DNA of 64,000 bases from an uncultured delta proteobacterium (GTDB lineage: Bacteria > Desulfobacterota > Desulfobacteria > Desulfobacterales > UBA11574): assembly GCA_963752565.1 (NCBI GenBank), contig CAVVZC010000019.1:21447-85446 (forward strand), given 5' to 3'. A model generated the notes under the pieces. That model saw only the letters and a program-made list of their open reading frames with translations, was not told the origin of the DNA and made no database searches. Positions 4,206-25,018 of this stretch are shown here, piece by piece (the stretch's first letter is position 1; the number at the start of each line of letters is the position of its first letter). A program made the translations under genes and the position numbers.

Positions 4206-4360
4206 CTTCTTGATAAATTAAGCGAGCAGGACCTGACTTTGTAAAAGAGAATGGTCGGTATTTGGAAAGTGAAAGTAAGCTTACCGAATACACCTTTATC
4301 AAGAGCTTACCATCCAACCCCTTGACAATACTTGAACATTGAAGATATGGAGGAATGTTC

Positions 4361-4555
4361 ATGATTAAAGTAAAAACATTTACAAGTCCCTTGAAGATAT
4401 TTCATGCAAAAAATGAACTGGAAGCGCTTGATAGACGGGTAAATCGCTTTATCGAGGATAACAATGTGAACAAAATTAATTCAATAAGTGATGCCTGTAC
4501 AACGGATGACAATGGCGCCACCATCGGAATTATCCGGGTCATTGCATACGAGTAA
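4361..4555 (+). CDS. Small conserved hypothetical protein (Cse60-like architecture, tentative)
   Basis: 64 aa starting MIKVKTFTS..ELEALDRRVNRFIEDN...IGIIRVIAYE. GGAGGA RBS lies 6 nt upstream of ATG 4361. Confidence 0.5.
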   Translation: MIKVKTFTSPLKIFHAKNELEALDRRVNRFIEDNNVNKINSISDACTTDDNGATIGIIRVIAYE

Positions 4556-4655
4556 ACCGGCTTGAAACCGGTTCCGATACTGTAAAGGACTTAAAAAAGA
4601 TTAACTCTGTGAAAAACACTGACGCAGGGAACCGATGGGTTAAAAGGAGGATTTC

Positions 4656-5273: not shown

Positions 5274-5415
5274 TCGAAATTTAAGTATTGCCTTCCACAG
5301 TAAAAGAAGAGGACACTAAACATTTCTTTAAGGCAACTAAAAAGATTAACCATTTTGGGTGCATTTCTCTCGACATGAATACATCGCAGATTCAGCCTAA
5401 AAAGAATAAGAAATA

Positions 5416-6780: not shown

Positions 6781-6854
6781 CGGTATGGATGAGATCTAAA
6801 AGAAAAGCATCATTTCTTAAAAATTGAGATAGGCTCTAATTGGGAGGATGTCAT

Positions 6855-8018
6855 ATGGATTTTGCGTTATCTAAAGAACTTCAGATGCTGAAAAAGGCGG
6901 TTTCTGAATTTGCGGCCAAAAAAATTGCACCCTATGCTGATGAGTGGGATGCAAAACATTATTTCCCTTACAAAGAAGCCATCAAGCCCATGGGAGAACT
7001 CGGTTTTTTTGGAACGGTCATTCCTGAAAAATATGGTGGAGAAGACATGGGTTGGCTGGCAGCCATGATTGTGACCGAAGAAATCGCAAAAGCCTCCAGT
7101 TCTCTCCGGGTTCAGATCAACATGCAGTGTCTTGGAAGCGCGTTTACCATCTGTAAATACGGGGATGAAGTCTTAAAACAAAAATACATCTCCAAATTAG
7201 TCGACGCCGAATATCTGGGCGGATTTGCCATAACAGAGCCCGATGCCGGTTCCGATGTCATGGCCATGACATCAACCGCCGAAGACAAGGGCGACCACTG
7301 GTGCTTAAACGGTTCCAAAACCTGGATCTCCAATGCAGACGTTGCGGATGTGATCATCTATTATGCTTATACAGATCCGGATAAGGGCACCAAAGGCCTT
7401 TCAGCCTTTGTCGTAGAACCAAAAAACTATAACGGTGTTAAAACCTCGGCTTTAGAAAAAATGGGGTCCCACTCCTCTCCCACCGGTGAAATATTTTTAA
7501 CCAATACTAAGGTCCCCAAGGAGAATATCATTGGAAGGCCCGGAGACGGTGCAAGGATTCTCTTCGGGTCTCTTGACCAAACCCGGCTTTCTGCAGCCGC
7601 CGGTGCCGTTGGTGTTGCACGGGCATGTTTGGAAATATCGCTAAAATATTGCAATGAACGCAAACAGTACGGAAAACCCATCGGCGAGTTTCAAATGAAT
7701 CAGGACATGATCGCCCAGATGTCCACCGAAATTGAAGCAGCCCGTTTTTTGGTTTACAAAGCAGCCTGGGCAAAGGATCAGGGAAACCTGAACAACGGTC
7801 TCGATGTGGCACAGGCAAAATATTTTGCAGGCGAAGTCGCTACCAAATGTGCGGGCTATGCCATGCGGATTCTGGGAGCGTACGGTTATTCCACCGAATA
7901 TCCGGTGGCCCGTTTTTATCGGGATACGCCAACCTATACCATGGTGGAAGGATCGGCCAATATCTGTAAATGGATTATTGCCCTGGATCAGCTCGGCATC
8001 CGAAAGGCAAACCGGTAA
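6855..8018 (+). CDS. Acyl-CoA dehydrogenase, probably glutaryl-CoA dehydrogenase type
   Basis: ACAD signatures (GFAITEPDAGSD, GSKTWISN, YRDTPTYTMVEGSANI). From memory it closely resembles the non-decarboxylating glutaryl-CoA dehydrogenase of Desulfococcus. GGAGG RBS lies before ATG 6855. Confidence 0.85.
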   Translation: MDFALSKELQMLKKAVSEFAAKKIAPYADEWDAKHYFPYKEAIKPMGELGFFGTVIPEKYGGEDMGWLAAMIVTEEIAKASSSLRVQINMQCLGSAFTICKYGDEVLKQKYISKLVDAEYLGGFAITEPDAGSDVMAMTSTAEDKGDHWCLNGSKTWISNADVADVIIYYAYTDPDKGTKGLSAFVVEPKNYNGVKTSALEKMGSHSSPTGEIFLTNTKVPKENIIGRPGDGARILFGSLDQTRLSAAAGAVGVARACLEISLKYCNERKQYGKPIGEFQMNQDMIAQMSTEIEAARFLVYKAAWAKDQGNLNNGLDVAQAKYFAGEVATKCAGYAMRILGAYGYSTEYPVARFYRDTPTYTMVEGSANICKWIIALDQLGIRKANR

Positions 8019-8114: not shown

Positions 8115-9008
8115 TTGTTGAAAGAAACACAACCTACAAAGCCCATAACAATTAATTATCCAAAGAACAAAAATAAGACCGCATCCCGAACCTTCCGCAA
8201 AACCATCCAATTTTATTTGATTGATTGCAAGACGCCATTGGGAAAGGCAATTGATATTTTCATCATATTTCTCAATCTCATCATCTGCGCTATTTTTGTC
8301 ATCGAGACCTATCCCGTGCCCGAGTCAGTTAAAAATTTTCTGTGGAACACAGAACTTATCATTGTATTTTTTTTCATCGCTGAATATGTTGCACGACTTT
8401 ACGGTGCAAAAAATAGACTCAAACAATTAATTGATGTTTATAGCATCGTTGACTTAATCGCCATTATACCGACCCTTTCTCTGCTTGTGCTTCCCCTGTT
8501 CGGTATTGCGCTCAACATTGGATTCTTAAGGGTAATCCGGATGATCCGTGTATTGAGGATATTCAGGTTCCTTCGGTTCACGGCAGATCCTAACTTCTTC
8601 TTTGGCACCATCACCCTTCGGTTGTTGAATTTAATCAAGCTCTTTTTAACCATATTCATGATTTTTTTCATATCTTCCGGTCTTTTTTTCTATGTTGAAA
8701 ACACGCTAAACCCACACGTTCAAACTTTCGGAGATGCGTTTTATTTCACTGTCGTAACGCTTTCGACAGTGGGATTCGGAGACATCATTCCCATGTCCGA
8801 AGCAGGAAAATGGGTCACCGTGCTAATGATACTGTCAGGTATTATTCTCATCCCCTGGCAAGTGAGCCGTATCGTCAAGGAGTGGTTACACATTGCCACA
8901 AAAAAAGAAATCATTTGTCCGAAATGCGGCCTTCGCTACCATGACGAAAATGCTTCACATTGTAAATCCTGCGGACATATTATTTACCAGGAATATAACG
9001 GGGATTAA
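8115..9008 (+). CDS. Voltage-gated-type (6TM) K+ channel with C-terminal zinc-ribbon
   Basis: S4-like RVIRMIRVLRIFRFLRF, selectivity filter TLSTVGFGD, and a C-terminal CPKCG...CKSCG. The TTG start is uncertain. Confidence 0.8.
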   Translation: MLKETQPTKPITINYPKNKNKTASRTFRKTIQFYLIDCKTPLGKAIDIFIIFLNLIICAIFVIETYPVPESVKNFLWNTELIIVFFFIAEYVARLYGAKNRLKQLIDVYSIVDLIAIIPTLSLLVLPLFGIALNIGFLRVIRMIRVLRIFRFLRFTADPNFFFGTITLRLLNLIKLFLTIFMIFFISSGLFFYVENTLNPHVQTFGDAFYFTVVTLSTVGFGDIIPMSEAGKWVTVLMILSGIILIPWQVSRIVKEWLHIATKKEIICPKCGLRYHDENASHCKSCGHIIYQEYNGD

Positions 9009-9297: not shown

Positions 9298-9984
9298 ATG
9301 GGAATTCTACTGCTTGAGGGAGGATGCGAATTTCAAGGGAAAATGGAAGAGCCGGACAGGAAAGCACTGACACTGGCCGGGGGAAAAAATGCTAAAGTTG
9401 TCATTATACCGACTGCCGCAGCACCGGACAACAATAGCAAACGAGCCGGCAATACAGCATTGGAATGGTTTGGTACACTCGGTGCAAGAAATATTTCCGC
9501 TTTGCCGATTATAGATAAAGAATCAGCCAATGATCCGGATCTCTCGGCCGAATTGGATCGTGCAAACCTAATTTATATTCTTGGAGGGTTTCCCGGCTAT
9601 CTGGATCACACCTTTAAAGAAAGTCGATGTCTGGATGCCCTTTGGCGCGCTTATGAAAAAGGCGCTGTAATTGCAGGGAGCAGTGCGGGTGCAATGGTTT
9701 TATGTGAGTGGTATTTTGATCCTGAATATAAAAAGATAAAGAAAGGGTTTGGGATCCAAAAAGACGTCATTTTGATTCCACACCATGATACATTTGGTCG
9801 TTCATGGCGTTTGCTATATTTTGATAAAATTTCAGACATCCGATGCATCGGCATAGATGAACAAACAGGAATGATTCGTCAAGCCGACCGTCATCGATGG
9901 ACCGTGTACGGAAAAGGTGGGGTTACGTTATATTTAAAAACGTCCATTGCGTCATATAAGACCGGGCAAACATTTCAGTTATAA
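9298..9984 (+). CDS. Peptidase S51 / cyanophycinase-like (GATase1-like fold) protein
   Basis: VVIIPTAAA, IYILGGFPG and the nucleophile-type motif AGSSAGAMV. Confidence 0.75.
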   Translation: MGILLLEGGCEFQGKMEEPDRKALTLAGGKNAKVVIIPTAAAPDNNSKRAGNTALEWFGTLGARNISALPIIDKESANDPDLSAELDRANLIYILGGFPGYLDHTFKESRCLDALWRAYEKGAVIAGSSAGAMVLCEWYFDPEYKKIKKGFGIQKDVILIPHHDTFGRSWRLLYFDKISDIRCIGIDEQTGMIRQADRHRWTVYGKGGVTLYLKTSIASYKTGQTFQL

Positions 9985-10196
9985 AACACCTGTGACCGAT
10001 GTCGCAGTTCGAAGGTTATCTTTAAGCAATAATAAAAAAGTTCTTTTTCGTGTTTTTACAATTTCGTGCTTTCGTGATAAAGATTTAATTTTTGTTCCTC
10101 GCTTTAGTTTCAGTAAAAACGGAATTTTTTTAAGCAATGATCGGTTTGTCAGGGTTAGGGTTAAACCGTTACACGCGATTTATGAGGTTTTTTTTT

Positions 10197-11459
10197 ATGT
10201 CTTCAAGAAAGGGCATGATCGTTCTGATGGGTTCCGGTGAGCTTACCCCCACAATGGTGGAGGTGCACAAAAATATGCTTGCCCGATTTCCGGATTCTCC
10301 CACCGCTGTTTTCTTGGACACACCTGCCGGTTTTCAACTAAACGTCGATGAGATTTCAAGAAAAGCAGTTGAGTATTTTCGTGTTCACGTTCAACAACAG
10401 CTCAACGTCGCCTCTTACAAATCCTCGGAGAATACAAGCGCATTTGAAGCAGAAACAGCATTTCATATGCTTCGAAATGCAGATTTTGTGCTTGTGGGGC
10501 CGGGTAGTCCCACGTATGCTGTTCGTCAGCTTCAAAAAACGCCGATTCCTGAAATTCTTGTTAATAATATTCAATCCGGTGGATGTTTGGTGGCCGCAAG
10601 TGCCGCTGCTCTTACCATGGGCCGTTTTACTCTTCCTGTGTACGAAATATACAAGGTCGGACATAAAACCCATTGGGTCGATGGGCTCGATGTTCTAGAA
10701 CAATTCGGATTCAATCTGATCGTCGTTCCTCATTGGAACAATGCCGAGGGCGGAACCCACGATACTCGATTCTGTTTTATGGGAAAACCCCGTTTTCAGC
10801 AACTTGAGACGCTTTTACCGGATAACGCGACGATCATAGGCATTGATGAACATACCGCCTGTATCATTGATCTTAATGCCCAACGAATCGATATCCAGGG
10901 AATTGGCAATGTAACCATTCGACAAAAAGGACGTGAAATAAAATTTGGTAAAGGAGATCAAATTCCCCTTGACGTATTGGTTAAAGAAATCAATCGGGAG
11001 GATTGGGCGCCGAAAGACGTTGATGACGTCGAGCAAGCCAGTGATCCGAATCTTTCAAAAAAAAGCTTTTTAAGTAAAGTTAATGCAATAGAATCTTCTT
11101 TTCACAATGGGATGGCGAATCATGATCAAAAAGAGACAACCAATGCCCTTTTGGAATTGGACAGCGCCATTTGGATAGCGCAAAAGAATCTGGAAGATGA
11201 AGAGCGTATTTCTCAAGCGCGAGAGATCCTGAGAGATTCAATCGTGCTTTTAGGCGCCGAATTGGGGGCTTCACCCCGTCGTCTTCGAAAATATTTAGCG
11301 CCTCTTGTTGAACAAATGCTTAAATTAAGGACAAGGTTCAGAAAGGAGCAACAATGGTCTGAGGCTGACCGCATCCGGGAGATCCTTCAACAATCCAATA
11401 TTCAGGTTGAAGATACCAAGGACGGGGTCCGCTGGCATATCATTGATGAAGACATTTAG
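10197..11459 (+). CDS. S51/GATase1-like domain fused to a CysRS-type C-terminal helical module
   Basis: The N-terminal half (IVLMGSGELT, LVGPGSPTY, VAASAAALTMG, IIGIDEHTA) parallels S51 proteins. The C-terminal ~140 aa (FHNGMANHDQKETTNALLELDSAIW ... WSEADRIREILQQSNIQVEDTKDGVRWHI) resembles the C-terminal part of cysteinyl-tRNA synthetases. The start may be 10197 or 10215. Confidence 0.7.
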   Translation: MSSRKGMIVLMGSGELTPTMVEVHKNMLARFPDSPTAVFLDTPAGFQLNVDEISRKAVEYFRVHVQQQLNVASYKSSENTSAFEAETAFHMLRNADFVLVGPGSPTYAVRQLQKTPIPEILVNNIQSGGCLVAASAAALTMGRFTLPVYEIYKVGHKTHWVDGLDVLEQFGFNLIVVPHWNNAEGGTHDTRFCFMGKPRFQQLETLLPDNATIIGIDEHTACIIDLNAQRIDIQGIGNVTIRQKGREIKFGKGDQIPLDVLVKEINREDWAPKDVDDVEQASDPNLSKKSFLSKVNAIESSFHNGMANHDQKETTNALLELDSAIWIAQKNLEDEERISQAREILRDSIVLLGAELGASPRRLRKYLAPLVEQMLKLRTRFRKEQQWSEADRIREILQQSNIQVEDTKDGVRWHIIDEDI

Positions 11460-11598
11460 CCCGAATATTTCATGAAAATTTTCGAGAGGCCTTTTTATTA
11501 GTAATGAAAACAGTTTTTTATTTACAATTTTGCTTCAAAAGGAACTCCGAATTATAGAGAGAATCGAGAAATCACCGGCTCAAGGAGACGATATATTC

Positions 11599-11833
11599 AT
11601 GCAACCACACCATCAAATGAATGTTCTATGTTGCCTTTCAAAATCAAAATCCAACCTTTCTTCACTCTTAAGGTATTTAGACAAAAATACCCCATGTTCA
11701 GGCCATCATATCGGAAAAACTTCCAGCGGATTTAAGCAAATTTCAGGTCGTTATTACGGAGCCCGCATCAGCACACAATCCAGCCCCTAAAAATTTAGAA
11801 CAATTTGTTAGATCAGGGGGGGGATGGCTGGGA
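11599..11833 (+). pseudogene. Out-of-frame N-terminal segment of the ThuA-like::Gfo/Idh/MocA gene (frameshift at an A5 run)
   Basis: After AAGGAG and ATG 11599, frame 1 reads MQPHHQMNVLCCLSKSKSNLSSLLRYLDK. Frame 2 is open only from 11681 and continues IPHVQAIISEKLPADLSKFQVVITEP...FVRSGGGWLGV, which is ThuA-like. The frames meet at aaaaa 11683-11687. Confidence 0.6.
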
Positions 11834-13255
11834 GTGATCAGTCTGTTGGAATTGCCCATATCAGAACTTTTCGGTGTATCATCCGGTCCTATTGGCCTGG
11901 AATCGGAAACACGGGTCCTGTTTCAAGATATAAATCAGCCGATGGCGGACCGATTACCCGATGCCATTTATGTGAAAGGACGATATCATCCCCTTCAGGT
12001 CCTCAAAGAAGATGTAACGACACTATTGTATGCTGATTGGCGTTATCAGCACAGTCCGGTATTGGTGTGCCGTCAGGTCGACGCCGGCCGGGTGGCATGT
12101 ACAACCCTTCAAGACTTTGAAAATTCTGACTTAAAACGGATCATCTATCGGTTATTACGAAAACTTTCAGGACAACCCGTAACTTCTGAGAACCTAAATG
12201 TCGGGATATTGGGGTACGCCCCTTCGGTAGGAGCGCTTCATGGAAACGGCGTTAACACGACTAACGGATTTAAGCTCCACGCCGTTTGTGACTTAAATCC
12301 CCAGCGGTTGAAGATGGCAGAGCATCGATTCCCCGAGACAAAAGTATATTCAAATGCCAAAGAATTAGCCAATGACGATGACGTAGATTTGGTCATCATC
12401 GCCACACCACCCAACAGTCATGCTAAGTTATCCCTTCAGATGATGACGAATAAAAAGCATGTGGTCTGTGAAAAACCTTTGGCACTCAATCGCAGCGAAA
12501 CATACCGGATGTTGGAAATGGCTGAAAAAATGAAGGTCCATTTAAGCTGCCACCAGAACCGGCGCTTTGACCCTGACTTTACGGCGATCAAACGTGCATT
12601 GCATGAAGATCTCATTGGCGATCTTTTCTATATGGAAACGTTTGTCGGCGGGTTCTCGCACCCTTGCGGATACTGGCATTCTCACGAAGAAATCTCCGGA
12701 GGTATTTCCTATGACTGGGGCGCACATTATTTGGACTGGATTGTTGATCTTATCCCTGACCATCCGGAATTTGTCGCTGCCTTTCGTCACAAAAGGGTAT
12801 GGCATGATGTAACCAATGCCGACCACGAAAGGATATGGATTAAATTTAAAGGGGGTAAGGAGGCTGAATTTATTCATTCAGATATTGCTGCTGTTCGCAA
12901 GCCCAAGTGGTACCTTTTAGGCACCAAAGGGGCAATCGTCGGACACTGGAAAGATGTGGCCACGTATCATATCGATCCGGTCCTTTATTTTCACCAACAG
13001 AACATTCCGGCAACGGAGATGATTCCGGATATGACGCTTTTCCGGTGTCATGCTTCAGGACAAATCTTAGAGCAAAAGATGGCCATACCCGAACGAAAAG
13101 ATTACGCATTCCATAAAAATCTTGCAGATCATCTGTTGACCGGTGAACCCCTGCTTTCATCTTTAATGGATTCTGTAAAAGTCGTTTCCATTTTAGAAAC
13201 AGCAGCCCTGAGTGCATCAAAAGGCGGCAGCATGGAGCGATTCGATGAATTTTAG
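11834..13255 (+). CDS. ThuA-like (C-terminal part) fused to Gfo/Idh/MocA oxidoreductase
   Basis: ThuA-type segment (PVLVCRQVDAGRVACTTLQDFEN) is followed by a Rossmann segment (VGILGYAPSVG...DLVIIATPPNSHAKL...VVCEKPLALN). The track GTG start is probably not the native start; see the frameshift feature. Confidence 0.75.
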   Translation: MISLLELPISELFGVSSGPIGLESETRVLFQDINQPMADRLPDAIYVKGRYHPLQVLKEDVTTLLYADWRYQHSPVLVCRQVDAGRVACTTLQDFENSDLKRIIYRLLRKLSGQPVTSENLNVGILGYAPSVGALHGNGVNTTNGFKLHAVCDLNPQRLKMAEHRFPETKVYSNAKELANDDDVDLVIIATPPNSHAKLSLQMMTNKKHVVCEKPLALNRSETYRMLEMAEKMKVHLSCHQNRRFDPDFTAIKRALHEDLIGDLFYMETFVGGFSHPCGYWHSHEEISGGISYDWGAHYLDWIVDLIPDHPEFVAAFRHKRVWHDVTNADHERIWIKFKGGKEAEFIHSDIAAVRKPKWYLLGTKGAIVGHWKDVATYHIDPVLYFHQQNIPATEMIPDMTLFRCHASGQILEQKMAIPERKDYAFHKNLADHLLTGEPLLSSLMDSVKVVSILETAALSASKGGSMERFDEF

Positions 13256-14267
13256 CATAAAATGGGGAATTTTAGGTAACGCCACGATTGCCAGAAAATG
13301 CGTGATTCCAGCCATCTTCAGCTCCGCAAATGGCCGCGTTCATGCTCTGGCATCTCGAAATTTTAAAAAAGCAGAAGCATTAGCAGAAAAATACGACATC
13401 ACCCGATTATACTCGCAATATGAATCCGTTATTGAAGATAAACAGGTCGACATTGTTTACATTCCCCTTCCCAATCATCTTCATAAGGAATGGACGATCA
13501 AAGCCTTAGGGGCTGGAAAACATGTTTTATGTGAAAAACCCCTGGCCTGTAATACTGCCGAGGCCATTGAAATGGCAGAGATTGCGTCGAAAAAAGGCTT
13601 GCATCTCATGGAAGCACTCATGTACCGGTTTCATCCGCGCAGCAGGATCATCCACCAAATGGTTTCAAAGGGGAAAATCGGAACACCGCGACTTGTTCGA
13701 GTTTCGTTTTGTTTCCATATGGAAGAACATATTTTAAAGAAAAAAGAGAATGCCCGTCTGAAAAAAAGGGGGGGAGGCGCGCTTTTAGATGTGGGATGCT
13801 ATGGCGTCAGTGTCGCACGATGGATGATGGGAGAAGATCCTGAAAGCGTTCAAGCCACTGCACATTTTAACTCTGAGGGTGTCGATATACACACAGTCGG
13901 TGTTTTGCACTTTCGAAACGGTGGCCTGGCAACGGTTGAAGCCAGCTTTATTAGTTCTCTGCAGCAGACCTATACCATCGTCGGTGAAGACGGTTCCATT
14001 GAACTTCCACACAATGCCTTTATTCCATGGGAAAAAGATGCAACTTACGTTCATCGTGGCAGACATGAGGAAATCGGCAGACAAGAAGTTATTCCGGGTG
14101 CAGACGAGTATCGGTTGATGGTTGAACATTTTTCAGACGTCCTAATCCACGGGTCCTCACCTTTGGTCCAAATTCACGACAGTATACAAAACATGCGGGT
14201 ACTGGACGCATTGGCCGAGTCGGCAAGATCCGGACAAATGGTTCTAATCCCTAAAAAGCAAATTTAA
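13245..14267 (+). CDS. Gfo/Idh/MocA family oxidoreductase
   Basis: IKWGILGNATIARK, DIVYIPLPNHLHKEW and HVLCEKPLA motifs. ATG 13245 overlaps the upstream stop codon. Confidence 0.85.
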   Translation: MNFSIKWGILGNATIARKCVIPAIFSSANGRVHALASRNFKKAEALAEKYDITRLYSQYESVIEDKQVDIVYIPLPNHLHKEWTIKALGAGKHVLCEKPLACNTAEAIEMAEIASKKGLHLMEALMYRFHPRSRIIHQMVSKGKIGTPRLVRVSFCFHMEEHILKKKENARLKKRGGGALLDVGCYGVSVARWMMGEDPESVQATAHFNSEGVDIHTVGVLHFRNGGLATVEASFISSLQQTYTIVGEDGSIELPHNAFIPWEKDATYVHRGRHEEIGRQEVIPGADEYRLMVEHFSDVLIHGSSPLVQIHDSIQNMRVLDALAESARSGQMVLIPKKQI

Positions 14268-14284
14268 CCTGAATTCATTTAAAA

Positions 14285-15289
14285 ATGTCGATGAACCTGA
14301 ATAAACAAAGAATAGAGATCAAAACAGAACCCTTTGAGCGACTAGAGTCTTTTTATCTAAACAAAAAATTCAATCTTGATTGGAACTGTTTGTTTGTTCT
14401 TCCCCTGTGGCTGAAAACATGGTGGGACACTTTTGGCGAGAAAAATAGACCTGAAATTCTGGCGGGATATCGTCATGGAAAATTAATTGGCATTGCCCCT
14501 TTGCGTATTCAAGATAAAACAGCGCGGTTCATTGGTGGAGAAAATGTGTGCGATTACCAGGACATGATCGTGGCGTCAAATCATCACCATGAATTCTATA
14601 AGGCAATTTTAACCCACCTGAAACAAAAGGGGATACGGTCTCTCCAATTGGGAACATTAAGACACGATTCCATATCGCTAACCCAATTGCCGAATCTGGC
14701 CAAACAAATGGGATATGCTGTTGTTTGTAATCAAGTGGCGTTTAGCTATGAAATAATATTACCCCGCACCTGGGAATCATATCTTTATATGCTCAAGGGA
14801 AAACAGCGCCATGAAATTCGACGAAAATTGAGGCGGCTAAACGAAGCGGGACATGTCCAATTTCGTGTTCTTGAACGATTGGATGAAATATCCGAAGCCA
14901 TGGATACCTTTTTTTCTTTGTTTAAGGCCAGCCGCCCGGACAAGTCTGAATTCCTGACAGAACAAATGGTGTCCTTTTTTCGTTTGTTGGCCCAAAGAAT
15001 GGCTCAACAGGGATTTTTGAGAATGTTTTTTTTAGACATTGATCGAGTACCGGCTGCCGGCGTAATGTGCTTTGACTACAATGATATCCTATTTCTTTAT
15101 AATAATGGATATAATCCTCAATTTAGCAATCTGAGTCCCGGGTTTCTCAGCAAAGTGTATAGTATCAGAAACAGTATTGACCAGGGAAAGCTTCGGTACG
15201 ATCTATTAAAGGGTGATGAAGGGTATAAAAAACGTCTGGGGAGTTCGCCGGTGCCGCTGTATCATTTAAAAATAGATCTTGAAGGATAA
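14285..15289 (+). CDS. GNAT-fold acyltransferase of the CelD/BcsL (FemAB-related) type
   Basis: LPRTWESYLYMLKGKQRHEIRRKLRRL ... NLSPGFLSKVYSIRNSIDQGKLRYDLLKGDEGYKKRLG matches the CelD-type family pattern. Confidence 0.7.
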   Translation: MSMNLNKQRIEIKTEPFERLESFYLNKKFNLDWNCLFVLPLWLKTWWDTFGEKNRPEILAGYRHGKLIGIAPLRIQDKTARFIGGENVCDYQDMIVASNHHHEFYKAILTHLKQKGIRSLQLGTLRHDSISLTQLPNLAKQMGYAVVCNQVAFSYEIILPRTWESYLYMLKGKQRHEIRRKLRRLNEAGHVQFRVLERLDEISEAMDTFFSLFKASRPDKSEFLTEQMVSFFRLLAQRMAQQGFLRMFFLDIDRVPAAGVMCFDYNDILFLYNNGYNPQFSNLSPGFLSKVYSIRNSIDQGKLRYDLLKGDEGYKKRLGSSPVPLYHLKIDLEG

Positions 15290-15331
15290 AGAGATTCAGA
15301 CAAAAAACCGACAAGAGATGAGAAGAATCAA

Positions 15332-16603
15332 ATGAAGCGGCGTTCAACAGAATTGAAAATTGCCATGCTGAGTATCCATTCAAGTCCCATTGGTGATTTG
15401 GGGACCCAGGATACAGGCGGAATGAGCGTTTATGTTCGGGAAATGGCCAAAGAATTGGGCAGAAAGGGCCATCATATCGACATCTTCACACAGCACAATG
15501 TCTGCAAGCACGATCCGGTCCTACATTTATACGACAACGTTCGTCTCGTCCATTTATCAGGGGGAACACGCGAGAATATCGCCAAATTCTCTCTCTATGA
15601 GATTTTGCCGCAACTATTTGACGAATTAGAATCCTTTCGAATCAAGGAAAATATCACGTATGATATCATCCACAGCCATTATTGGCTCTCAGGGGTTTTA
15701 GGGCTCAAGCTCCAGTCATCCTGGAATGCATATCACCTGGTCACATACCATACCATCGGCGCTGTGAAAAACTTAACCTGTCCAACGGAAAATGCGTCCA
15801 AATTACGGCTGACAAACGAAAATGAACTGGCAAAGCTGTGTGATCAAATTGTCGTTCCCACCCAACAAGATAAGGAACATTTAATCCGGTATTACAACGC
15901 ACCTATTGATAAAATCCGGATTATTCCGTGTGGTGTTAATCTTGGACTTTTCAAACCATTGGACAAAGCATCTGCTCGCCGGTTTTTGGCGTTTTCTACA
16001 GATGATCGCATTGTCTTATATGTGGGACGGTATGCCCCCATTAAAGGACTTGATCGTTTGTTCAAAGCGCTTGGCAATCTTACACATTTTTCTCATCTTC
16101 GCCTGGTCATGGTGGGGGGTGACGGCGAACACTCCCCCATGTTTCGACAGTTAAAATCCAATGCAACGACGCTTCACATCGAAAATCTCATAACGTTTGC
16201 CGGGAGGGTGGACCAGGAAACCCTGCCCCAATATTACAGTGCTGCGGATGTTCTGGTTGTACCATCCTATTATGAGAGCTTCGGTCTTGTGGCACTCGAG
16301 GCATTGGCTTGCGGAACGCCTATTGTGACCGCTTCGGTCGGCGCGATGGAAGAAATTGTAAAAGAGGGCGTTACAGGATATGTCGCAAAGGACCCGAATC
16401 CACAACATTATGCCCGGCTGATCGAAACCATTTTGATAAAGCAGCAGCAGAACGGCTTATCGCCCTCAAAAATTCGGTCATCAGTGGCCCAATATACATG
16501 GACAAGGTCCGCTTCCATGTTACTTGACGCGTACCGGGCGGCATGGACGGATACATCGGAAAATATTTATAAAAATAAAGAGGAGATTCAATTTGTTAAA
16601 TAG
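15332..16603 (+). CDS. GT4 glycosyltransferase, MshA-like (inositol-phosphate glycosyltransferase family)
   Basis: IAMLSIHSSPIGDLGTQDTGGMSVYV, YDIIHSHYWLSG, YHTIGAVKN and ESFGLVALEALACGTP parallel the conserved blocks of MshA. Confidence 0.75.
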   Translation: MKRRSTELKIAMLSIHSSPIGDLGTQDTGGMSVYVREMAKELGRKGHHIDIFTQHNVCKHDPVLHLYDNVRLVHLSGGTRENIAKFSLYEILPQLFDELESFRIKENITYDIIHSHYWLSGVLGLKLQSSWNAYHLVTYHTIGAVKNLTCPTENASKLRLTNENELAKLCDQIVVPTQQDKEHLIRYYNAPIDKIRIIPCGVNLGLFKPLDKASARRFLAFSTDDRIVLYVGRYAPIKGLDRLFKALGNLTHFSHLRLVMVGGDGEHSPMFRQLKSNATTLHIENLITFAGRVDQETLPQYYSAADVLVVPSYYESFGLVALEALACGTPIVTASVGAMEEIVKEGVTGYVAKDPNPQHYARLIETILIKQQQNGLSPSKIRSSVAQYTWTRSASMLLDAYRAAWTDTSENIYKNKEEIQFVK

Positions 16604-17288
16604 ATCCGAAATAATGGTGATAGCAGCACATCCGGATGATGCGGAATTCGGTGCCGCGGGTTCCGTTGCCAGGTGGACCATAGAAGGAAGACGGGTAGTC
16701 TATGTGGTGTGCACCAGCGGGGACAAAGGCACCGACAATCCGGACATACCCCCCCAACAGCTTGCTAAAATTCGAGAAAAAGAGCAAAGAGACGCTGCTG
16801 CGGTATTGGGTGTCTTTGATGTCGTTTTCCTTGGATATCCTGACCAGGGACTCGAAGATACATCGGATTTTCGCAAAGCGATTGTAAGGCAAATCCGAAC
16901 ATATAAACCGGATATGATCGTGACATCTGATCCTTACAGGCGTTACATCTGGCACAGAGACCATCGCATCACCGGACAGGTAACACTGGATGCGGTCTAT
17001 CCTTATGCCCGTGATCTGCTGGCATATCCAGGTTTAATCGAAGAAGGACTCATGCCCCATAAGGTGAAAAAAATCCTGTTCTTCGGAACCGAGGATGTCA
17101 ATTTGCGGATAGACATTACCGGAACCTTTCACCTCAAACTTGAAGCATTGCGTTGTCACAAAAGCCAAATTATCCAGCTTGGCATCCCTGATCTGGAAAA
17201 ATGGCTTTGGCAGCGATGTCAAAAAATGGCCGAAGGCGAATATTTTGAGGTCGCCGAAGCGTTTCATCAGGTGGAGGTGGCCTTTTAA
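16593..17288 (+). CDS. PIG-L/LmbE family N-acetylglucosaminyl deacetylase
   Basis: VIAAHPDDAEFGAAG, CTSGDKG and HRDH metal and active-site motifs. TTG 16593 has GAGGAG 7 nt upstream; ATG 16614 is the alternative start. It overlaps the GT4 stop. Confidence 0.85.
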   Translation: MLNRSEIMVIAAHPDDAEFGAAGSVARWTIEGRRVVYVVCTSGDKGTDNPDIPPQQLAKIREKEQRDAAAVLGVFDVVFLGYPDQGLEDTSDFRKAIVRQIRTYKPDMIVTSDPYRRYIWHRDHRITGQVTLDAVYPYARDLLAYPGLIEEGLMPHKVKKILFFGTEDVNLRIDITGTFHLKLEALRCHKSQIIQLGIPDLEKWLWQRCQKMAEGEYFEVAEAFHQVEVAF

Positions 17289-17290
17289 AC

Positions 17291-17311
17291 CGCTTCGGAA
17301 ACACCGAGGCG
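17291..17311. terminator. Hairpin between convergent genes
   Basis: cgcttcgg-aaaca-ccgaggcg forms 8 bp (one G-U) starting 3 nt after the PIG-L stop. There is no clear U-tract. Confidence 0.3.
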
Positions 17312-17360
17312 ACATATCGACTTTGAAAGCGTATATTATTTCGAAAAAGGGTGGGCGGGA

Positions 17361-18020
17361 TTATTCCGACAAATGGATTCTCGGGTTAAAATAAGCGATT
17401 GACGGATGCTCATCTTTTTTATCCGTCGAATAAGAAAATGTGGTAATTGATGAAACGGCGGGATATTCTTTTAGGACTCCAAGGGTCGTAAATCTTTTCT
17501 TGTTAAGAGGTGTTGTAGAGAAATGACTCGCCCACAGCATCATGAATAAAATAACGTCACCGTGTGTCACCGCCACGACATGCTTTCCGGAACAGGTGCG
17601 GCGCGTCCTGGATAAAAACTTTTGAACCCTAAACAAGATGTCTTCCGGTTGTTCATATTTCGAATCGACGCCAGTGTAAACATCTCCGGCTCTTAAATCA
17701 ACCGCTTCCGAAGACTGACCTTGAAACGGTGTAAGAACCTCCGTGATTAAGCTCGATTGTCTTGGTTTGAGGTGACGATGATATTTAAGTATTTCAGCTG
17801 CTGTTTGGCGGCAGCGAAGCAGGGGGCTGCTAATAATATCTTCAATGATCAGATCCTTCAAAGACCGAGCCGCTCGAGCCGCTTCAAGGCGCCCTCTTTT
17901 GCTTAAATAAAACCCCGGTAAACGGCCATAAAAAATATTGGATGGATTATGCACACTGGCATGTCGAACCAAAGAAATGCGTGTGACTGCATTTTGGGGA
18001 ATCATTCCGGTTTTTACCAT
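17361..18020 (-). CDS. Histidine phosphatase (phosphoglycerate-mutase-like) family protein
   Basis: ISLVRHASVHN (RH catalytic motif) and VAVTHGDVI (second His). Confidence 0.8.
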   Translation of the reverse strand: MVKTGMIPQNAVTRISLVRHASVHNPSNIFYGRLPGFYLSKRGRLEAARAARSLKDLIIEDIISSPLLRCRQTAAEILKYHRHLKPRQSSLITEVLTPFQGQSSEAVDLRAGDVYTGVDSKYEQPEDILFRVQKFLSRTRRTCSGKHVVAVTHGDVILFMMLWASHFSTTPLNKKRFTTLGVLKEYPAVSSITTFSYSTDKKDEHPSIAYFNPRIHLSE

Positions 18021-18068
18021 TTGGATGCTTTGAGACCTTTGAAAGATGTGGGTTTTTGTTATGAACGC

Positions 18069-19175
18069 TCATTTGTTTGAAATAAAATCTTCTAACAATG
18101 AGAATGCAAAATCATCCGTATATTGTACGGGTGGATGTTTGCAATAGTAGGCTGAAGGCGCCTCTAATACGCCACCAATATTTCGTTCGATGGCCAATTT
18201 GCATAGGCGAATACAATCGATGGCAGCGCCAGCGGAATTGGGCGAATCCTCAACAGACAACCTAAGTTCAAGGTTCATAGGTATATCACCAAAAAGTCTG
18301 CCTTCCATTCGAATAAAACACACTTTGTTGTCGTTGAGCCACGGGACATAGTCACTGGGGCCAATATGTATGTTACGGTCTTCAAGCTTTTCTTCCATAA
18401 CGGCTTGAACAGCCACTGTTTTTGATTTCTTTTTTTTATCAAGCCGCTTCCTGTTCAACATATTTAAAAAATCGGTGTTGCCCCCCGTATTTATTTGATA
18501 TGTCTTTTCTAACTTGGCACCCCGTTTTCCAAACAGGTTCGTTAACGCCCGATGAACAATCGTTGCGCCGAGTTGGGATTTAATATCGTCGCCTATTATT
18601 GGAATTCCGCTGGATTTAAACTGTTCGGCCCAAAAAGGATCGCTCGCAATAAAAACAGGAATGTTGTTGATAAATGAAACACCGGCTTCCAGGGCACATT
18701 CGGCATAAAATCTTGATGCCTCTTCCGAACCCACCGGCAAATAATTTAAAAGTATTTCCGTGCCGGAATGCTTTAAAATTTTGATGACGTCGCTTTGGGT
18801 TGGTTCTTTTTCATCACAAAGCAAAAATGTATATTCAGGGTCATAGTTCTTCATATGTTCAGAAAAACCGTCCAATATTTTCCCCATGGACACTCCAACT
18901 CCTGCTTTGGGCATGTTCGTAACAAATTTTTTAGTGCAGTTCGGTCGCTCAAAAATGGCTTCATGAACGTCTTTACCGACTTTTCTCCGATCGATGTCAA
19001 ATGCCGAAACAACTTCAATATCAACAGGTGTATAACCATTGATCGACCAATATAAAATTCCGCTGGCATTATTGTGTTTTTTGCTCTGGTAATATATAGT
19101 TCCCTGAAGGAGCGAACTTGCACAATTACCAACACCGATGATACCGATTTTTATGGGTGTCATATCATCATCCAA
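18069..19175 (-). CDS. ino1: myo-inositol-1-phosphate synthase
   Basis: KIGIIGVGNCASSL, GDDIKSQLGATIVHR, NTGGNTDF and SVEDSPNSAG match the bacterial/archaeal short MIPS type. The start is TTG 19175 or ATG 19163. Confidence 0.9.
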   Translation of the reverse strand: MDDDMTPIKIGIIGVGNCASSLLQGTIYYQSKKHNNASGILYWSINGYTPVDIEVVSAFDIDRRKVGKDVHEAIFERPNCTKKFVTNMPKAGVGVSMGKILDGFSEHMKNYDPEYTFLLCDEKEPTQSDVIKILKHSGTEILLNYLPVGSEEASRFYAECALEAGVSFINNIPVFIASDPFWAEQFKSSGIPIIGDDIKSQLGATIVHRALTNLFGKRGAKLEKTYQINTGGNTDFLNMLNRKRLDKKKKSKTVAVQAVMEEKLEDRNIHIGPSDYVPWLNDNKVCFIRMEGRLFGDIPMNLELRLSVEDSPNSAGAAIDCIRLCKLAIERNIGGVLEAPSAYYCKHPPVQYTDDFAFSLLEDFISNK

Positions 19176-19373: not shown

Positions 19374-20189
19374 GTGAAAAAAATTATTCTTACCACACTG
19401 GCATATCTGTGTTTGACCACTGTACCGGCCTGGGGGCAGAATGCCATAGAATTTTACAACCGTGGTGTCAAAAGCACTCTGGCTTACAAAAAGATCGAGC
19501 ACTTTACCAAGGCTATCCAGTTGAATCCAAACCTGGTGGAGGCCTATGAAAAACGAGCCATTCACTACTACCTCCAGTGGCAACTTGACAACGCCATTCA
19601 GGATTATAATCGCGTTATAGCGCTGAAGCCTAATGATGCAAATGTTTATCTGATGCGGGGTCTTGCCTATTTTAAAAAGGAATATGGCGAAGGATATTCT
19701 TCAGAACTAAAGAACCTGAAGTATCATCTCAGCAAACAAGAAGTACCTGATTTCAGCGAATCGTTAGAGCGGGCAATAGACAATTTCAGTCGCGCCATCG
19801 ACATGGATCCCCAACTGGCAAGTGCATACAGCTATCGGGCAGTGGCATACCGTATCAAGGGAATGATAGAAGAAGCTTTCCACGATGCGACGATGGTTAT
19901 TCAATTGAAAAGCGATCCACAAAGCACTGCAAGGGCTTATAAAACCCTGTCCAAAATCTATCAAAAGTTGGGACAAGATGAGCTTTCCGAGGTCAATCTT
20001 CGTAAATCCGTAGTGTTGGACCCCTACTCTCCGGATTATCCGCCATTGCATGTGCCCCTCATATCCAACGACCCATCTGATACCGCCAGTCTGAAAGCCG
20101 TCGGCCGGATGGGACTTTTCGGCATCATCATTCTCGTGGTTGTGGTGATTCTCAAGATAGCCCTGCCGGCCCCCCAAAAAAAAGATTAG
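19374..20189 (+). CDS. TPR-repeat protein with signal peptide and C-terminal TM anchor
   Basis: N-terminal MKKIILTTLAYLCLTTVPAWG, repeated A..Y..AI.L.P TPR motifs, and C-terminal GLFGIIILVVVVILKIAL. Confidence 0.75.
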   Translation: MKKIILTTLAYLCLTTVPAWGQNAIEFYNRGVKSTLAYKKIEHFTKAIQLNPNLVEAYEKRAIHYYLQWQLDNAIQDYNRVIALKPNDANVYLMRGLAYFKKEYGEGYSSELKNLKYHLSKQEVPDFSESLERAIDNFSRAIDMDPQLASAYSYRAVAYRIKGMIEEAFHDATMVIQLKSDPQSTARAYKTLSKIYQKLGQDELSEVNLRKSVVLDPYSPDYPPLHVPLISNDPSDTASLKAVGRMGLFGIIILVVVVILKIALPAPQKKD

Positions 20190-20303
20190 TGATGATACTG
20201 TTTGACAGAATATCTCTGCTTTTTTATGATTTAAATACCCTGTCCTTTTGAAAATGGATCACTTAAAATTCAAATCCTTGATTAAAGAACTCGGAGGTCG
20301 ATT

Positions 20304-20537
20304 ATGACTCAGGAGATATTGGCGCCCCTTGACGGTAAGGTATTTCAACTCAAGATAAAAGCAGGAGACAATGTGGAAGAAGACGAAGAAATCCTGGTGA
20401 TCGAAGCCATGAAGATGGAAACACCGATATTTGTCCCCTGTGATGGGGTGGTCATAGAAGTCATAGTCAAAGAAGGGGATGAAGTGGTGGAAAACGACGT
20501 TTTGGCCATTATCGACGAAGAACACATCGAGGTTTAA
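20304..20537 (+). CDS. Biotinyl-carrier domain protein (decarboxylase gamma-like)
   Basis: 77 aa with the biotinylation motif IEAMKMETPI. Its stop lies 3 nt before the carboxyltransferase start. Confidence 0.85.
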   Translation: MTQEILAPLDGKVFQLKIKAGDNVEEDEEILVIEAMKMETPIFVPCDGVVIEVIVKEGDEVVENDVLAIIDEEHIEV

Positions 20538-20540
20538 GCC

Positions 20541-22274
20541 ATGAGACCATATTTTGACAAAATGGATGAATTTGGCCACACATTGAAAAAAGGCCGAATA
20601 AAAAGCACGGAAGAAAACCTCAACAGCATCCAGAAAATCGAAAAAGACGTTGCTGTTGAAGTGAATCGGGTTAAACTGGCCGGATTCTCTGAAGAAAAGA
20701 TTAATGCCAGGGGACAAATGACGGTGTGGCAGCGTCTTGAATACCTCGTCGATCCTGAGACCTGGTGTCCGTTGCATACCCTGTACAATCCAATGAACAA
20801 TGAAGAAGGGACGACAAACGTCATTGACGGCATCGGTAAGATTTCAGGCAAATGGGCCGTGATTATCGGATTTGACAATAAGGTGATGGCCGGAGCGTGG
20901 CTGCCGGGGCAGTCTGAAAATATTCTAAGGGTGACCGACCTGTCCAAACGCCTGAATATTCCTTTGATCTGGCTGATTAATTGCAGTGGCGCCAAATTGA
21001 CCGAACAGGAAAAATTCTATGCCAATCGTCGTGGGGCCGGGACCCCTTTTTTCAGGCATGCCGAGCTTGAACAGTTGGGGATACCGGTGCTTGCCGGCAT
21101 CTATGGTACCAATCCGGCCGGCGGCGGGTACCAGAGCATCAGCCCCACCATACTCTTTGCGCACAAAGACTGTAATATTGCCGTGGGTGGTGTCGGCATC
21201 GTTAGCGGCATGGCGCCCAAAGGAGAATTTAATTTAGAAGCCGCAGAAGAAATCATCGAAAAAGCAAAACAGTTTCAGGCCAAACCACCGGGGTCGGTAA
21301 ACATCCACTATGATGAAACCGGCTTTTTTAGATATGTGTTTGAAGATGAAACCGGTGTGTTGGACGGGCTAAAAGATTATATGAAAGATATGCCGGCATA
21401 CCCTCCCAAATTTTTTCGGGTTACTGAACCGAAAGAACCTCGATTTCCAATAGATGATCTTTACCGCTTGATTCCCTTAAACCCCAAAAGAGTATACGAT
21501 TTTGACGAGGTATTGGCCCGGCTGGTGGATTCAAGCGAGCATATGCCATTCCGTCCCGATTACGGCCCGGAAGTGTATGCGGGATTATGCAAAATCGACG
21601 GATTTCTGGTGGCCTGCATTGGAAATAGACAACAATATCTTGGCAGGCACTATCCGGAGTATGCCGGCTACCCCGGCATGGGTGGGAAGCTCTACCGCCA
21701 GGGGCTGATAAAAATGAACGAATTCGTGACCCTTTGCGGCAGAGACCGTATCCCGATCATTTGGCTTCAGGACAGTTCAGGACTGGATGTGGGGGATGCG
21801 GCTGAAAAAGCGGAACTTTTGGGTCTGGCCCAGGGGTTGGTCTACTCGATTCAGCAGACAGACGTTCCCATGATGCTTCTGCTCCTCAGAAAAGGAACGG
21901 CATCAGCCCACTATCTCATGGGCGGACCCACCGCCAACCGGCACAATGCCTTTACCCTGGGTACCGCAGCCAGTGAAATATATGTCATGCACGGGGAGAC
22001 CGCTGCGGTGGCAACCTATTCCCGAAGGCTGGTCAAAGAAAAAGATGCAGGTAGGCCTTTGGAACCGGTCATCGAAAAGATGAACAAACTGGCCAAGGAG
22101 TATCACGAAAAATCAAGGCCCTTGTTCTGTGCAAAAAACGGTCTGGTGGATGAAATTGTGCCATTGTGTGATTTGAGAAAATACATAGTGGGTTTTACCG
22201 GAGCGGCCTATCAAAATCCAAAATCCATCTGTCCCCAGCATCATATGATCTTGCCTAGAATTATCAAAGGATAA
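20541..22274 (+). CDS. Acyl-CoA carboxyltransferase, glutaconyl-CoA decarboxylase alpha (GcdA)-like
   Basis: 577 aa with two carboxyltransferase halves (WAVIIGFDNKVMAGAW..., IPIIWLQDSSGLDVG). Size and N-terminus fit GcdA-type enzymes. Confidence 0.8.
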   Translation: MRPYFDKMDEFGHTLKKGRIKSTEENLNSIQKIEKDVAVEVNRVKLAGFSEEKINARGQMTVWQRLEYLVDPETWCPLHTLYNPMNNEEGTTNVIDGIGKISGKWAVIIGFDNKVMAGAWLPGQSENILRVTDLSKRLNIPLIWLINCSGAKLTEQEKFYANRRGAGTPFFRHAELEQLGIPVLAGIYGTNPAGGGYQSISPTILFAHKDCNIAVGGVGIVSGMAPKGEFNLEAAEEIIEKAKQFQAKPPGSVNIHYDETGFFRYVFEDETGVLDGLKDYMKDMPAYPPKFFRVTEPKEPRFPIDDLYRLIPLNPKRVYDFDEVLARLVDSSEHMPFRPDYGPEVYAGLCKIDGFLVACIGNRQQYLGRHYPEYAGYPGMGGKLYRQGLIKMNEFVTLCGRDRIPIIWLQDSSGLDVGDAAEKAELLGLAQGLVYSIQQTDVPMMLLLLRKGTASAHYLMGGPTANRHNAFTLGTAASEIYVMHGETAAVATYSRRLVKEKDAGRPLEPVIEKMNKLAKEYHEKSRPLFCAKNGLVDEIVPLCDLRKYIVGFTGAAYQNPKSICPQHHMILPRIIKG

Positions 22275-22496
22275 GTGGATCCACTGAGTTTTGATTAATG
22301 CATGGATTGTGGCGTCCAGCGATTTTTAGGTGTTGGAGCATAACCTTGAAAAATAGGGTGGGTGGTTCTGTGGAGATAGATGAGAGGGATCGTTGGCTTG
22401 CAGTATTTTAAACTTATTAGATATCCATATTTTCGAGCACTTCATTAATCTGTTCGGTGTCTAACTATCCTTTTTTATTTTATTATCTATTCTGGA

Positions 22497-22628
22497 TCAA
22501 ATCCTAAGATGATGTTTAACCGTATACGTCATATCCTCATCAAGATCTATTGCGGATAACCATTCAAGATAATCGATTGGAATTTCATCAAACTTCATTC
22601 CCTTGTGTTTCCCATATTGTTCTTTCAA
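22497..22628 (-). CDS. Short DUF3820-like ORF (possible remnant)
   Basis: The 43-aa product from a TTG start is MKEQYGKHKGMKFDEIPIDYLEWLSAIDLDEDMTYTVKHHLRI. The GKHKG..EIP..YLEWL pattern is typical of DUF3820. It is below the ORF-track size cut-off. Confidence 0.35.
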   Translation of the reverse strand: MKEQYGKHKGMKFDEIPIDYLEWLSAIDLDEDMTYTVKHHLRI

Positions 22629-22732
22629 AGGCTTAATTCTATTTATTTCAAAAATAATAAAGTTATATGTGATTTAGGCCGATATTAATATCGATCTAAA
22701 TCATCGTTAATAATTATAATGTGGGCATTTAT

Positions 22733-24997: not shown

Positions 24998-25018
24998 CGT
25001 GTTCAATAGGAATGGGTC

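Follow-up and report, generated by a model that had tools for sequence, protein, structure and literature searches.

A conserved Desulfobacterota gene cluster that may encode a mycothiol-like glucosamine-inositol pathway with a FemX-type transferase

Mycothiol in Actinomycetota and bacillithiol in Firmicutes are, with those of some other bacteria, the low-molecular-weight thiols whose biosynthetic enzymes have been mapped. The locus described here, found in a window of 64,000 nucleotides (the whole stretch of DNA that was analysed) from an uncultured delta proteobacterium, raises the question of whether Desulfobacterota may make a mycothiol-like molecule by an undescribed route. The reading proposed here, which is tentative and falls somewhat short of an even chance, is that an operon and a convergent Ino1–phosphatase pair build a mycothiol-like glucosamine-inositol (GlcN-Ins) conjugate, using a non-canonical step to form the amide. 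It draws on established findings: the genes present and their domains, the matches in fold, the conservation of the cluster, and its co-occurrence with Ino1.

The plus-strand genes of the cluster (9298–17288) converge on a minus-strand histidine phosphatase and Ino1, both identified by Pfam. They are tightly packed, with GfoB overlapping GfoA and intergenic distances of 17, 42, and 10 nt from GfoB through the GNAT and the GT4 to the PIG-L gene. Both features had been pointed out in the preliminary description, together with a gene list that Pfam and NCBIfam largely bear out: an S51 protein, an S51 protein fused to the C-terminal module of a cysteinyl-tRNA synthetase (CysRS), two Gfo/Idh/MocA oxidoreductases, a FemAB-related GNAT, an MshA-like GT4, and a PIG-L deacetylase. 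The part of that interpretation that finds no support is a ThuA domain fused to the first oxidoreductase. GfoA (11834–13255, plus strand, starting at GTG 11834 or ATG 11942) holds the Pfam GFO_IDH_MocA domain and its C-terminal domain, and its conserved N-terminal extension of ~80–120 aa shows neither ThuA nor any other Pfam domain, even at E ≤ 10. IolG- and glycoside-3-dehydrogenase-like NCBIfam models match GfoA, all of them under cutoff, and GfoB (13245–14267, plus strand) is a second GFO_IDH_MocA protein, IolG/Gfo6-like, with NCBIfam models also under cutoff.

Pfam E-values for the cluster genes range from 1e-15 to 1e-92, and the order S51a–P0001–(GfoA–GfoB)–GNAT–GT4–PIGL is kept in 80 independent loci from Desulfobacterales and related orders. 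Chance open reading frames are thereby excluded, and the cluster consists of real, conserved genes. The co-conservation across Desulfobacterales that had been proposed as a check is thus observed, with a core module (the S51–CysRS-C fusion, GNAT, GT4, and PIG-L) that is syntenic in the 80 Desulfobacterota loci. Gene by gene, S51a lies upstream of the fusion in 52 loci, while GfoA is present in 55, GfoB in 53, the GNAT in 61, and the GT4 in 59; PIG-L is found in 44, with many of the 80 loci truncated. One variant of the cluster is devoid of both GfoA and GfoB. Metatranscriptome contigs span several cluster genes, and one of them joins the GNAT and the GT4, a weak observation.

The GNAT (14285–15289, plus strand; 334 aa) would be the enzyme that forms the amide bond. 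The FemAB-related acyltransferase recognized earlier is confirmed by the Pfam domains Acetyltransf_6 and FemAB_like and by an AF2 model (pLDDT 94) with the bi-domain fold of the aminoacyl-tRNA-dependent transferases (FemX/FemA/Sbb17/MprF). In fact, the best Foldseek matches of this model are tRNA-dependent transferases, and VIA comparison gives Z 21.9 with FemX (6snr), 21.6 with FemA (1lrz), and 20.2–20.5 with FemXVv, versus 14.8 with MshD (2c27). It has been reported that the FemABX-like GNATs of natural-product pathways depend on aminoacyl-tRNA, and that Orf11 of the BD-12 pathway transfers glycine from Gly-tRNA to an aminosugar (PMC12945691). The modelled fold makes the GNAT a candidate N-aminoacyl transferase acting on GlcN-Ins; it falls short of proving a tRNA donor, as 2hqy, a close relative, is functionally uncharacterized and acetyl-CoA tandem GNATs likewise reach Z 13–15.

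Among solved structures, the streptothricin aminoacyl-tRNA-dependent peptide synthases Sbb17/Sba18 (Z 20–22), which act on an aminosugar, come closest to the GNAT. This similarity, the patchy presence of the cluster (54 of the 301 genomes of the order), and the additional tailoring enzymes (GfoA/GfoB and two S51 hydrolases) agree with a pathway not for a redox-buffer thiol but for a specialised antibiotic-like product, such as an aminoacylated GlcN-cyclitol or an aminoglycoside-like compound made through a FemX-like tRNA step with Gfo/Idh and S51 tailoring. Nevertheless, many Desulfobacterota genomes conserve the cluster, and this wide distribution fits a housekeeping role better than a rare secondary metabolite; in addition, no transporter, resistance, or regulatory gene is seen in the core module. 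A product of this kind is considered rather unlikely.

The nature of the sugar acceptor depends in turn on the GT4 (15332–16603, plus strand). Its best NCBIfam model is TIGR03449 MshA, with 311 bits (cutoff 462), ahead of BshA (111 bits) and sucrose-phosphate synthase (SPS, 91 bits), and it has in common with MshA the N-terminal motif HxSP...GGM(N/S)VY. Phmmer searches of the PDB place MshA (3c48/3c4q) approximately level with the SPS Tll1590, and BshA (5d00) far lower. BshA identity was rejected on both measures. The phylogeny that had been suggested as a check favours MshA in part: the GT4 is sister to actinobacterial MshA with UFBoot 90 but SH-aLRT 48, in a tree whose small reference set contains neither BshA nor SPS nor PimA sequences, so that the link is weak. 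According to these data, the MshA-like assignment made earlier is supported at the profile level, and the GT4 is a candidate UDP-GlcNAc:Ins-P GlcNAc-transferase.

The neighbouring enzymes are consistent with this assignment. Ino1 (18069–19163, minus strand) holds the Pfam domain Inos-1-P_synth and scores 412 bits with TIGR03450, the mycothiol-type model, which identifies it as a predicted inositol-3-phosphate synthase of the mycothiol type. Next to it, the CobC-like His_Phos_1 protein (17361–18020, minus strand) is a candidate GlcNAc-Ins-P phosphatase for the MshA2 step. The PIG-L deacetylase (16614–17288, in an ORF starting at 16524, plus strand; Pfam E 6.5e-33) conserves the zinc motif HPDDxE as HPDDAE, in agreement with its first description as a PIG-L protein, and is a candidate GlcNAc-Ins deacetylase; its best NCBIfam models are BshB1/BshB2, followed by Mca and MshB under their cutoffs.

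Inositol as the acceptor, proposed earlier for the cluster, is backed by adjacent Ino1 and phosphatase genes in the subclade of the window, and elsewhere only by co-occurrence with Ino1 at the genome level. Ino1 adjoins the cluster in 12 of the 80 loci, exclusively in this subclade, and His_Phos_1 in 14, which comprise the subclade and distant Gfo-less loci. The inositol acceptor is firm only in that subclade, since the adjacency is limited to it. Most loci, belonging to a larger GT4 clade, have neither gene nearby, and their acceptor may consequently not be Ins-P. In most lineages the GT4 might then use a hydroxy-acid or another polyol to yield a different GlcN-X product, Ino1 having been recruited in one subclade; the weak support for MshA in the tree and the equal phmmer score of SPS are in line with this. 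Against it, the MshA profile leads the BshA and SPS models by ~200 bits, and Ino1 co-occurs strongly with the cluster, being present in 49 of the 54 genomes with the cluster versus 104 of the 247 without it (Fisher p 1e-11, uncorrected for kinship, related genomes not being independent). Such a non-inositol acceptor is considered unlikely. Modification of a membrane lipid or of the envelope, for instance to give a glycosyl-inositol lipid with an aminoacylated head group in the manner of MprF/A-PGS, is very unlikely: the GNAT model also fits the catalytic domains of MprF/A-PGS/L-PGS (Z 17–19), but this 334-aa protein is soluble, with no transmembrane segments in its DSSP profile and no MprF flippase, and the GT4 is nearer to MshA than to PimA-type phosphatidylinositol mannosyltransferases by PDB phmmer.

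The amino acid expected in the GlcN-Ins conjugate is suggested by one of the two S51 proteins. S51a (9298–9984, plus strand; 228 aa) is a cyanophycinase/peptidase-E-like serine hydrolase (Pfam PF03575, E 2e-15; NCBIfam cyanophycinase-like), whose triad of Ser (SAGAM), His (PHHD), and Glu (GIDE) is intact in a PDB alignment to 6nqc and 7uqv. The second protein, P0001 (10197–11459, in an ORF starting at 10137, plus strand), is a fusion of Peptidase_S51 and CysS_C, with a length of 420 aa because its homologs begin at M21. Its S51 domain (residues 1–265) holds an S135/H179/E218 triad that is invariant in the alignment (A2), as are several Arg residues of its C-terminal helical domain (residues ~292–420). 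The CysRS C-terminal module noticed previously in this fusion is recovered by Pfam CysS_C (E 7.8e-5), by NCBIfam cysS over 313–434, and by PDB phmmer matches to CysRS C-termini. The AF2 model matches E. coli CysRS–tRNACys (1u0b_B) over 117 residues (Foldseek prob 0.99) with a VIA Z of 7.9, which is modest for a helical domain. Thus, in both sequence and predicted structure, this domain resembles the anticodon-binding domain of CysRS, and it may recognise Cys-tRNA(Cys).

In the proposed pathway, whose every substrate and product we infer, Ino1 would supply inositol-phosphate, to which the GT4 would add GlcNAc from UDP-GlcNAc to form GlcNAc-Ins-P. The histidine phosphatase would then dephosphorylate this intermediate and PIG-L would deacetylate it to GlcN-Ins. 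Finally, the FemX-type GNAT, standing in for the ATP-dependent ligase MshC, would acylate the amine of the glucosamine with an amino acid that probably comes from a charged tRNA; FemX and the streptothricin and BD-12 enzymes carry out analogous reactions on aminosugar or peptide amines. Cysteine is favoured because the S51 fusion carries the CysRS anticodon-binding-like domain, and it would yield a thiol resembling desacetyl-mycothiol. It is doubtful, however, that Cys-GlcN-Ins or a derivative is made in precisely this tRNA-dependent manner, with the S51 protein selecting Cys-tRNA(Cys) for the FemX-like GNAT and no MshC-type ligase. The S51 hydrolases and both Gfo/Idh enzymes might tailor the conjugate (amidase or editing activity, and oxidation of the cyclitol or sugar, respectively), roles that are guesses. 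The two S51 hydrolases, with their intact triads, could also mean that the pathway degrades amides (by amidase activity or in detoxification) instead of building them.

If the proposal is correct, the cluster would represent a fourth wiring of the GlcN-Ins pathway, extending tRNA-dependent amide bonds from cell walls, lipids, and antibiotics to central redox metabolism, and its His_Phos_1 enzyme would be a testable candidate for the MshA2 phosphatase step. Should the cysteine route indeed be tRNA-dependent, no earlier low-molecular-weight thiol would be known to borrow aminoacyl-tRNA for its synthesis. With conserved genes and steps that lend themselves to reconstitution, the question is directly answerable.

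Among known systems, the FemABX-type enzymes (FemX, PacB, VlmA, Orf11, Sbb17/Sba18, MprF/A-PGS) are the closest to the predicted structure of the GNAT, with best Z-scores of 20–22. For several of them, aminosugars or amines are the acceptors and aminoacyl-tRNA the donor: Sbb17/Sba18 use the aminosugar scaffold streptothrisamine, and MprF/A-PGS aminoacylate phosphatidylglycerol. To our knowledge, none of them acts on GlcN-inositol or in a thiol-like pathway. Both S51 proteins of the cluster share with peptidase E and cyanophycinase the fold (Z 16–26) and the intact Ser-His-Glu triad, but P0001 additionally carries a CysRS anticodon-binding-like domain, a combination that we do not know from any described S51 enzyme.

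Bacillithiol is made in Firmicutes by BshA, which uses malate, BshB, and BshC. The cluster resembles this set in its GT4 and PIG-L pair yielding a GlcN-X conjugate, and differs from it in a GT4 much nearer to MshA than to BshA (311 versus 111 bits), in the presence of an inositol-phosphate synthase, and in the lack of BshC, no TIGR03998 match being found in the source genome.

Mycothiol (AcCys-GlcN-Ins) is made in Actinomycetota by Ino1, MshA, MshA2, MshB, MshC, and MshD, where MshC is an ATP-dependent ligase paralogous to CysRS and MshD an acetyl-CoA tandem GNAT. The preliminary description had seen no catalytic homologue of MshC or BshC, and profile searches of the source genome concur: the MshC model matches only the housekeeping CysRS (481 aa, C17), with no MshC paralog, and MshD gives weak GNAT fragments with no match over cutoff. 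Instead of MshC and MshD, the cluster, which belongs to anaerobic, sulfate-reducing Desulfobacterota and not to Actinomycetota, holds a FemX-type GNAT, the S51–CysRS-like fusion, a second S51 protein, and two Gfo/Idh enzymes. Despite these differences, its mycothiol-type Ino1, its GT4 with MshA as best model, its MshB/BshB-like PIG-L, and a phosphatase that may serve the MshA2 step point to the sequence GlcNAc-Ins-P, GlcNAc-Ins, and GlcN-Ins.

The cluster comprises seven plus-strand genes, which were identified with Pfam and NCBIfam profiles and occupy 9298-17288 of the window. The tight packing attributed to this run holds, with measured gaps of 10-42 nt. The first gene (S51a, 9298-9984, +) encodes a cyanophycinase-like Peptidase_S51 protein of 228 aa, and the second (10197-11459, +) a fusion protein of 420 aa, whose start (M21, at 10197) was set from homologs. 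In the fusion protein, an S51 domain at the N-terminus is followed by a CysS_C domain at the C-terminus (E 7.8e-5 in Pfam; NCBIfam cysS, residues 313-434). Both S51 proteins of the preliminary description are recovered by Pfam. In a related population (run X17), the intergenic region between these two genes (joint 9980->10196) is divergent or replaced.

Two Gfo/Idh/MocA oxidoreductases are encoded next, GfoA (11834-13255, +) and the IolG/Gfo6-like GfoB (13245-14267, +). GfoA has a conserved N-terminal extension of ~80-120 aa, previously interpreted as a fused ThuA domain; this identity has been dropped, because a Pfam search of the extension gave no hit, even with the threshold relaxed to E<=10. 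The part devoid of a Pfam domain corresponds to window positions 11834-11941 plus the N-terminus up to about residue 120. The acyltransferase GNAT (14285-15289, +; 334 aa) matches the Acetyltransf_6 and FemAB_like profiles, in agreement with its proposed relationship to FemAB. After the glycosyltransferase GT4 (15332-16603, +; 423 aa), the run ends with a PIG-L deacetylase (true start 16614, to 17288, +), which exhibits an HPDDAE zinc motif and has BshB1/2 as top models, followed by Mca and MshB. A CobC-like His_Phos_1 phosphatase (17361-18020, -) and a mycothiol-type Ino1 (18069-19163, -; TIGR03450, 412 bits) converge on the plus-strand genes.

Directly upstream, a voltage-gated-type ion channel (Ion_trans/Ion_trans_2, 8115-9008, +) is unrelated to the cluster. 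The flanks (1403-8018 and 19374-31014) encode PFOR alpha and beta subunits, a cytidylate kinase-like protein, an NhaA Na+/H+ antiporter, an acyl-CoA dehydrogenase, TPR, HEAT-repeat and HD-domain proteins, a DctM TRAP permease and a methylmalonyl-CoA decarboxylase/propionyl-CoA carboxylase-like carboxyltransferase, all compatible with an anaerobic Desulfobacterota genome. No tRNA gene, including a dedicated tRNA-Cys, was found within the window. Scanning for promoter and terminator consensus sequences yielded no excess of sites over shuffled controls, and therefore operon boundaries are not assignable. The fusion, GfoA and the region of Ino1 are represented among public metatranscriptome contigs (run X16), and so is a stretch of 635 bp that crosses the GNAT-GT4 junction; these contigs, which prove neither transcription level nor a single transcript, hint that the cluster genes are transcribed in situ, possibly jointly.

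The GT4 had been described as MshA-like, and its top NCBIfam model is indeed MshA (311 bits, cutoff 462), strongly preferred over BshA (111), SPS (91) and other GT4 models. In phmmer searches against the PDB, Corynebacterium glutamicum MshA (3c48/3c4q) scored 223 bits, Thermosynechococcus SPS Tll1590 227 and BshA 67. The N-terminal motif S-x-H-x-S-P...G-G-M-(N/S)-V-Y is common to the window GT4 and actinobacterial MshA (the annotated mshA of Tsukamurella; Nocardia). GT4s from Burkholderia and Pseudanabaena show GGQN(V/I)Y. Maximum-likelihood analysis of 55 sequences (LG+C20; a Nonomuraea plasmid reference, read out of frame, was left out) groups the GT4s of all 50 Desulfobacterota clusters in a single clade (99/95), with the window GT4 inside the Ino1-adjacent subclade. 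The sister position of this clade to the actinobacterial MshA pair is weakly supported (UFBoot 90, SH-aLRT 48), with the Paraburkholderia, Pseudanabaena and Natrinema GT4s placed outside. By sequence, the GT4 is thus MshA-like, MshA orthology lying beyond the reach of this reference set.

In the model of the fusion protein (pLDDT 80), the S51 domain matches 6nqc (Z 25.6) as well as cyanophycinase and PepE (Z 16-23), and its Ser-His-Glu triad is invariant in 40 homologs. The C-terminal helical domain, in which several arginines are invariant, matches the anticodon-binding domain of Escherichia coli CysRS in complex with tRNA-Cys (1u0b_B; VIA Z 7.9, 117 aligned residues, 22% identity, Foldseek prob 0.99). 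Since sequence profile and predicted structure agree, the suggested CysRS C-terminal module can be considered a CysRS-anticodon-like module, which may bind tRNA-Cys. A literature search found no description of cyanophycinase-anticodon-domain fusions.

The AlphaFold2 model of GNAT (pLDDT 94, alignment of 41 homologs) has FemX (6snr, Z 21.9) and FemA (1lrz, 21.6) as top structural neighbours, whereas acetyl-CoA-dependent tandem GNATs score lower, among them mycothiol synthase MshD (2c27, Z 14.8, and 1ozp, 13.7) and a glucosamine N-acetyltransferase (about 15). FemABX-like GNATs of natural-product pathways (VlmA, DhpH/K, PacB, Orf11) use aminoacyl-tRNAs, and Orf11 carries out the Gly-tRNA-dependent aminoacylation of an aminosugar intermediate (PMC12945691). 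On the basis of these fold neighbours and this biochemistry, GNAT is predicted to move an amino acid from aminoacyl-tRNA to the glucosamine amine of GlcN-Ins. Sba18/Sbb17 (9wqy/9wqw/9wqx), peptide synthases of streptothricin that depend on aminoacyl-tRNA, also match the model (Z about 21), including in complexes with the aminosugar acceptor streptothrisamine, and the cluster might accordingly be read as making an aminoacylated aminosugar-cyclitol natural product and not a redox buffer, which we consider unlikely.

Using the fusion protein, whose nearest homologs belong to Desulfobacterales/Desulfobacteraceae MAGs, as bait, 80 loci were recovered from GTDB genomes, nearly all Desulfobacterota. 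A check of co-conservation had been suggested, and the core order S51a (at about -0.8 kb), fusion, GfoA, GfoB, GNAT, GT4 and PIG-L is kept in them, with a variant without the Gfo pair in which GNAT lies directly at +1.3 kb. The phosphatase adjoins the cluster in 14 loci (the window subclade and distant Gfo-less loci), but adjacency to Ino1 is confined to 12 loci of the window's close subclade (~75-90% identity). An acceptor other than inositol in most lineages would suit this restricted adjacency; nevertheless, among the 301 genomes of the order, Ino1 occurs in 49 of the 54 with a full-length fusion homolog versus 104 of the 247 that lack the cluster (Fisher test, p about 1e-11, a significance overstated because relatives are non-independent), and we regard such an acceptor as rather improbable. 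MprF, A-PGS and L-PGS match GNAT with Z 17-19, after Weissella FemX (about 20.3); an MprF-like lipid or envelope modification is a very improbable reading. A second Ino1 (L093:6525-7703, 392 aa, on contig C4) lies away from the cluster in the window's own genome (4.05 Mb, 28 contigs), next to a transposase (rve), a xylose-isomerase-like TIM barrel, a CopA-type heavy-metal ATPase and cbb3 oxidase genes, without pathway context.

Other neighbours were considered. All-against-all clustering for further conserved ones gave mostly spurious GC-rich antisense ORFs, and CdaA, after PIG-L in one distant locus, was rejected as unrelated. A metallo-beta-lactamase-fold hydrolase (HxHxDH) occurs close to the cluster, at variable positions, in ~12 of 36 distant loci; it may be a thioester hydrolase of the glyoxalase II type, which would be compatible with a thiol pathway.

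The proposed pathway is framed by what has been shown: the genes present and the domains they encode, the integrity of the catalytic motifs, the matching folds, the kept synteny and the genome co-occurrence with Ino1. Ino1 would form Ins-3-P, the GT4 GlcNAc-Ins-P, the phosphatase (an MshA2 candidate) GlcNAc-Ins, and PIG-L GlcN-Ins, which GNAT would convert with aminoacyl-tRNA into N-aminoacyl-GlcN-Ins. Cysteine is favoured as the amino acid because the fusion protein carries a CysRS-anticodon-like domain; this domain might recognise Cys-tRNA-Cys, and then participate in transfer or else edit/hydrolyse. S51a and the Gfo/Idh pair may act on the product, tailoring or recycling it. We consider the core GlcN-Ins module probable, and likelier than the pathway as a whole, which we hold only tentatively; a Cys-containing thiol as the product, less certain than the core module, is doubtful.

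The literature search found nothing on this cluster, nor on mycothiol, MshA or MshB in Desulfobacterota. The cluster is not a bacillithiol pathway, because BshC is absent from the window's own genome and the GT4 is not BshA-like. Over the first three or four steps it would resemble mycothiol biosynthesis; however, it is not an MshC/MshD pathway, as neither defining enzyme was found in that genome, where MshD is absent and the MshC model matches only the single housekeeping CysRS, extending to the whole genome the lack of MshC and BshC homologues first noted in the window. GNAT would stand in for the missing ATP-dependent MshC. Structurally it conforms to the aminoacyl-tRNA-dependent FemABX transferases, its fold suggesting a tRNA donor. 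The cluster is best read as a putative GlcN-Ins pathway, conserved across Desulfobacterota, that combines a predicted FemX-type tRNA-dependent amide step with a novel S51-CysRS-anticodon fusion; tRNA-dependent cysteinylation, if true, would be a categorically new way of making a low-molecular-weight thiol.
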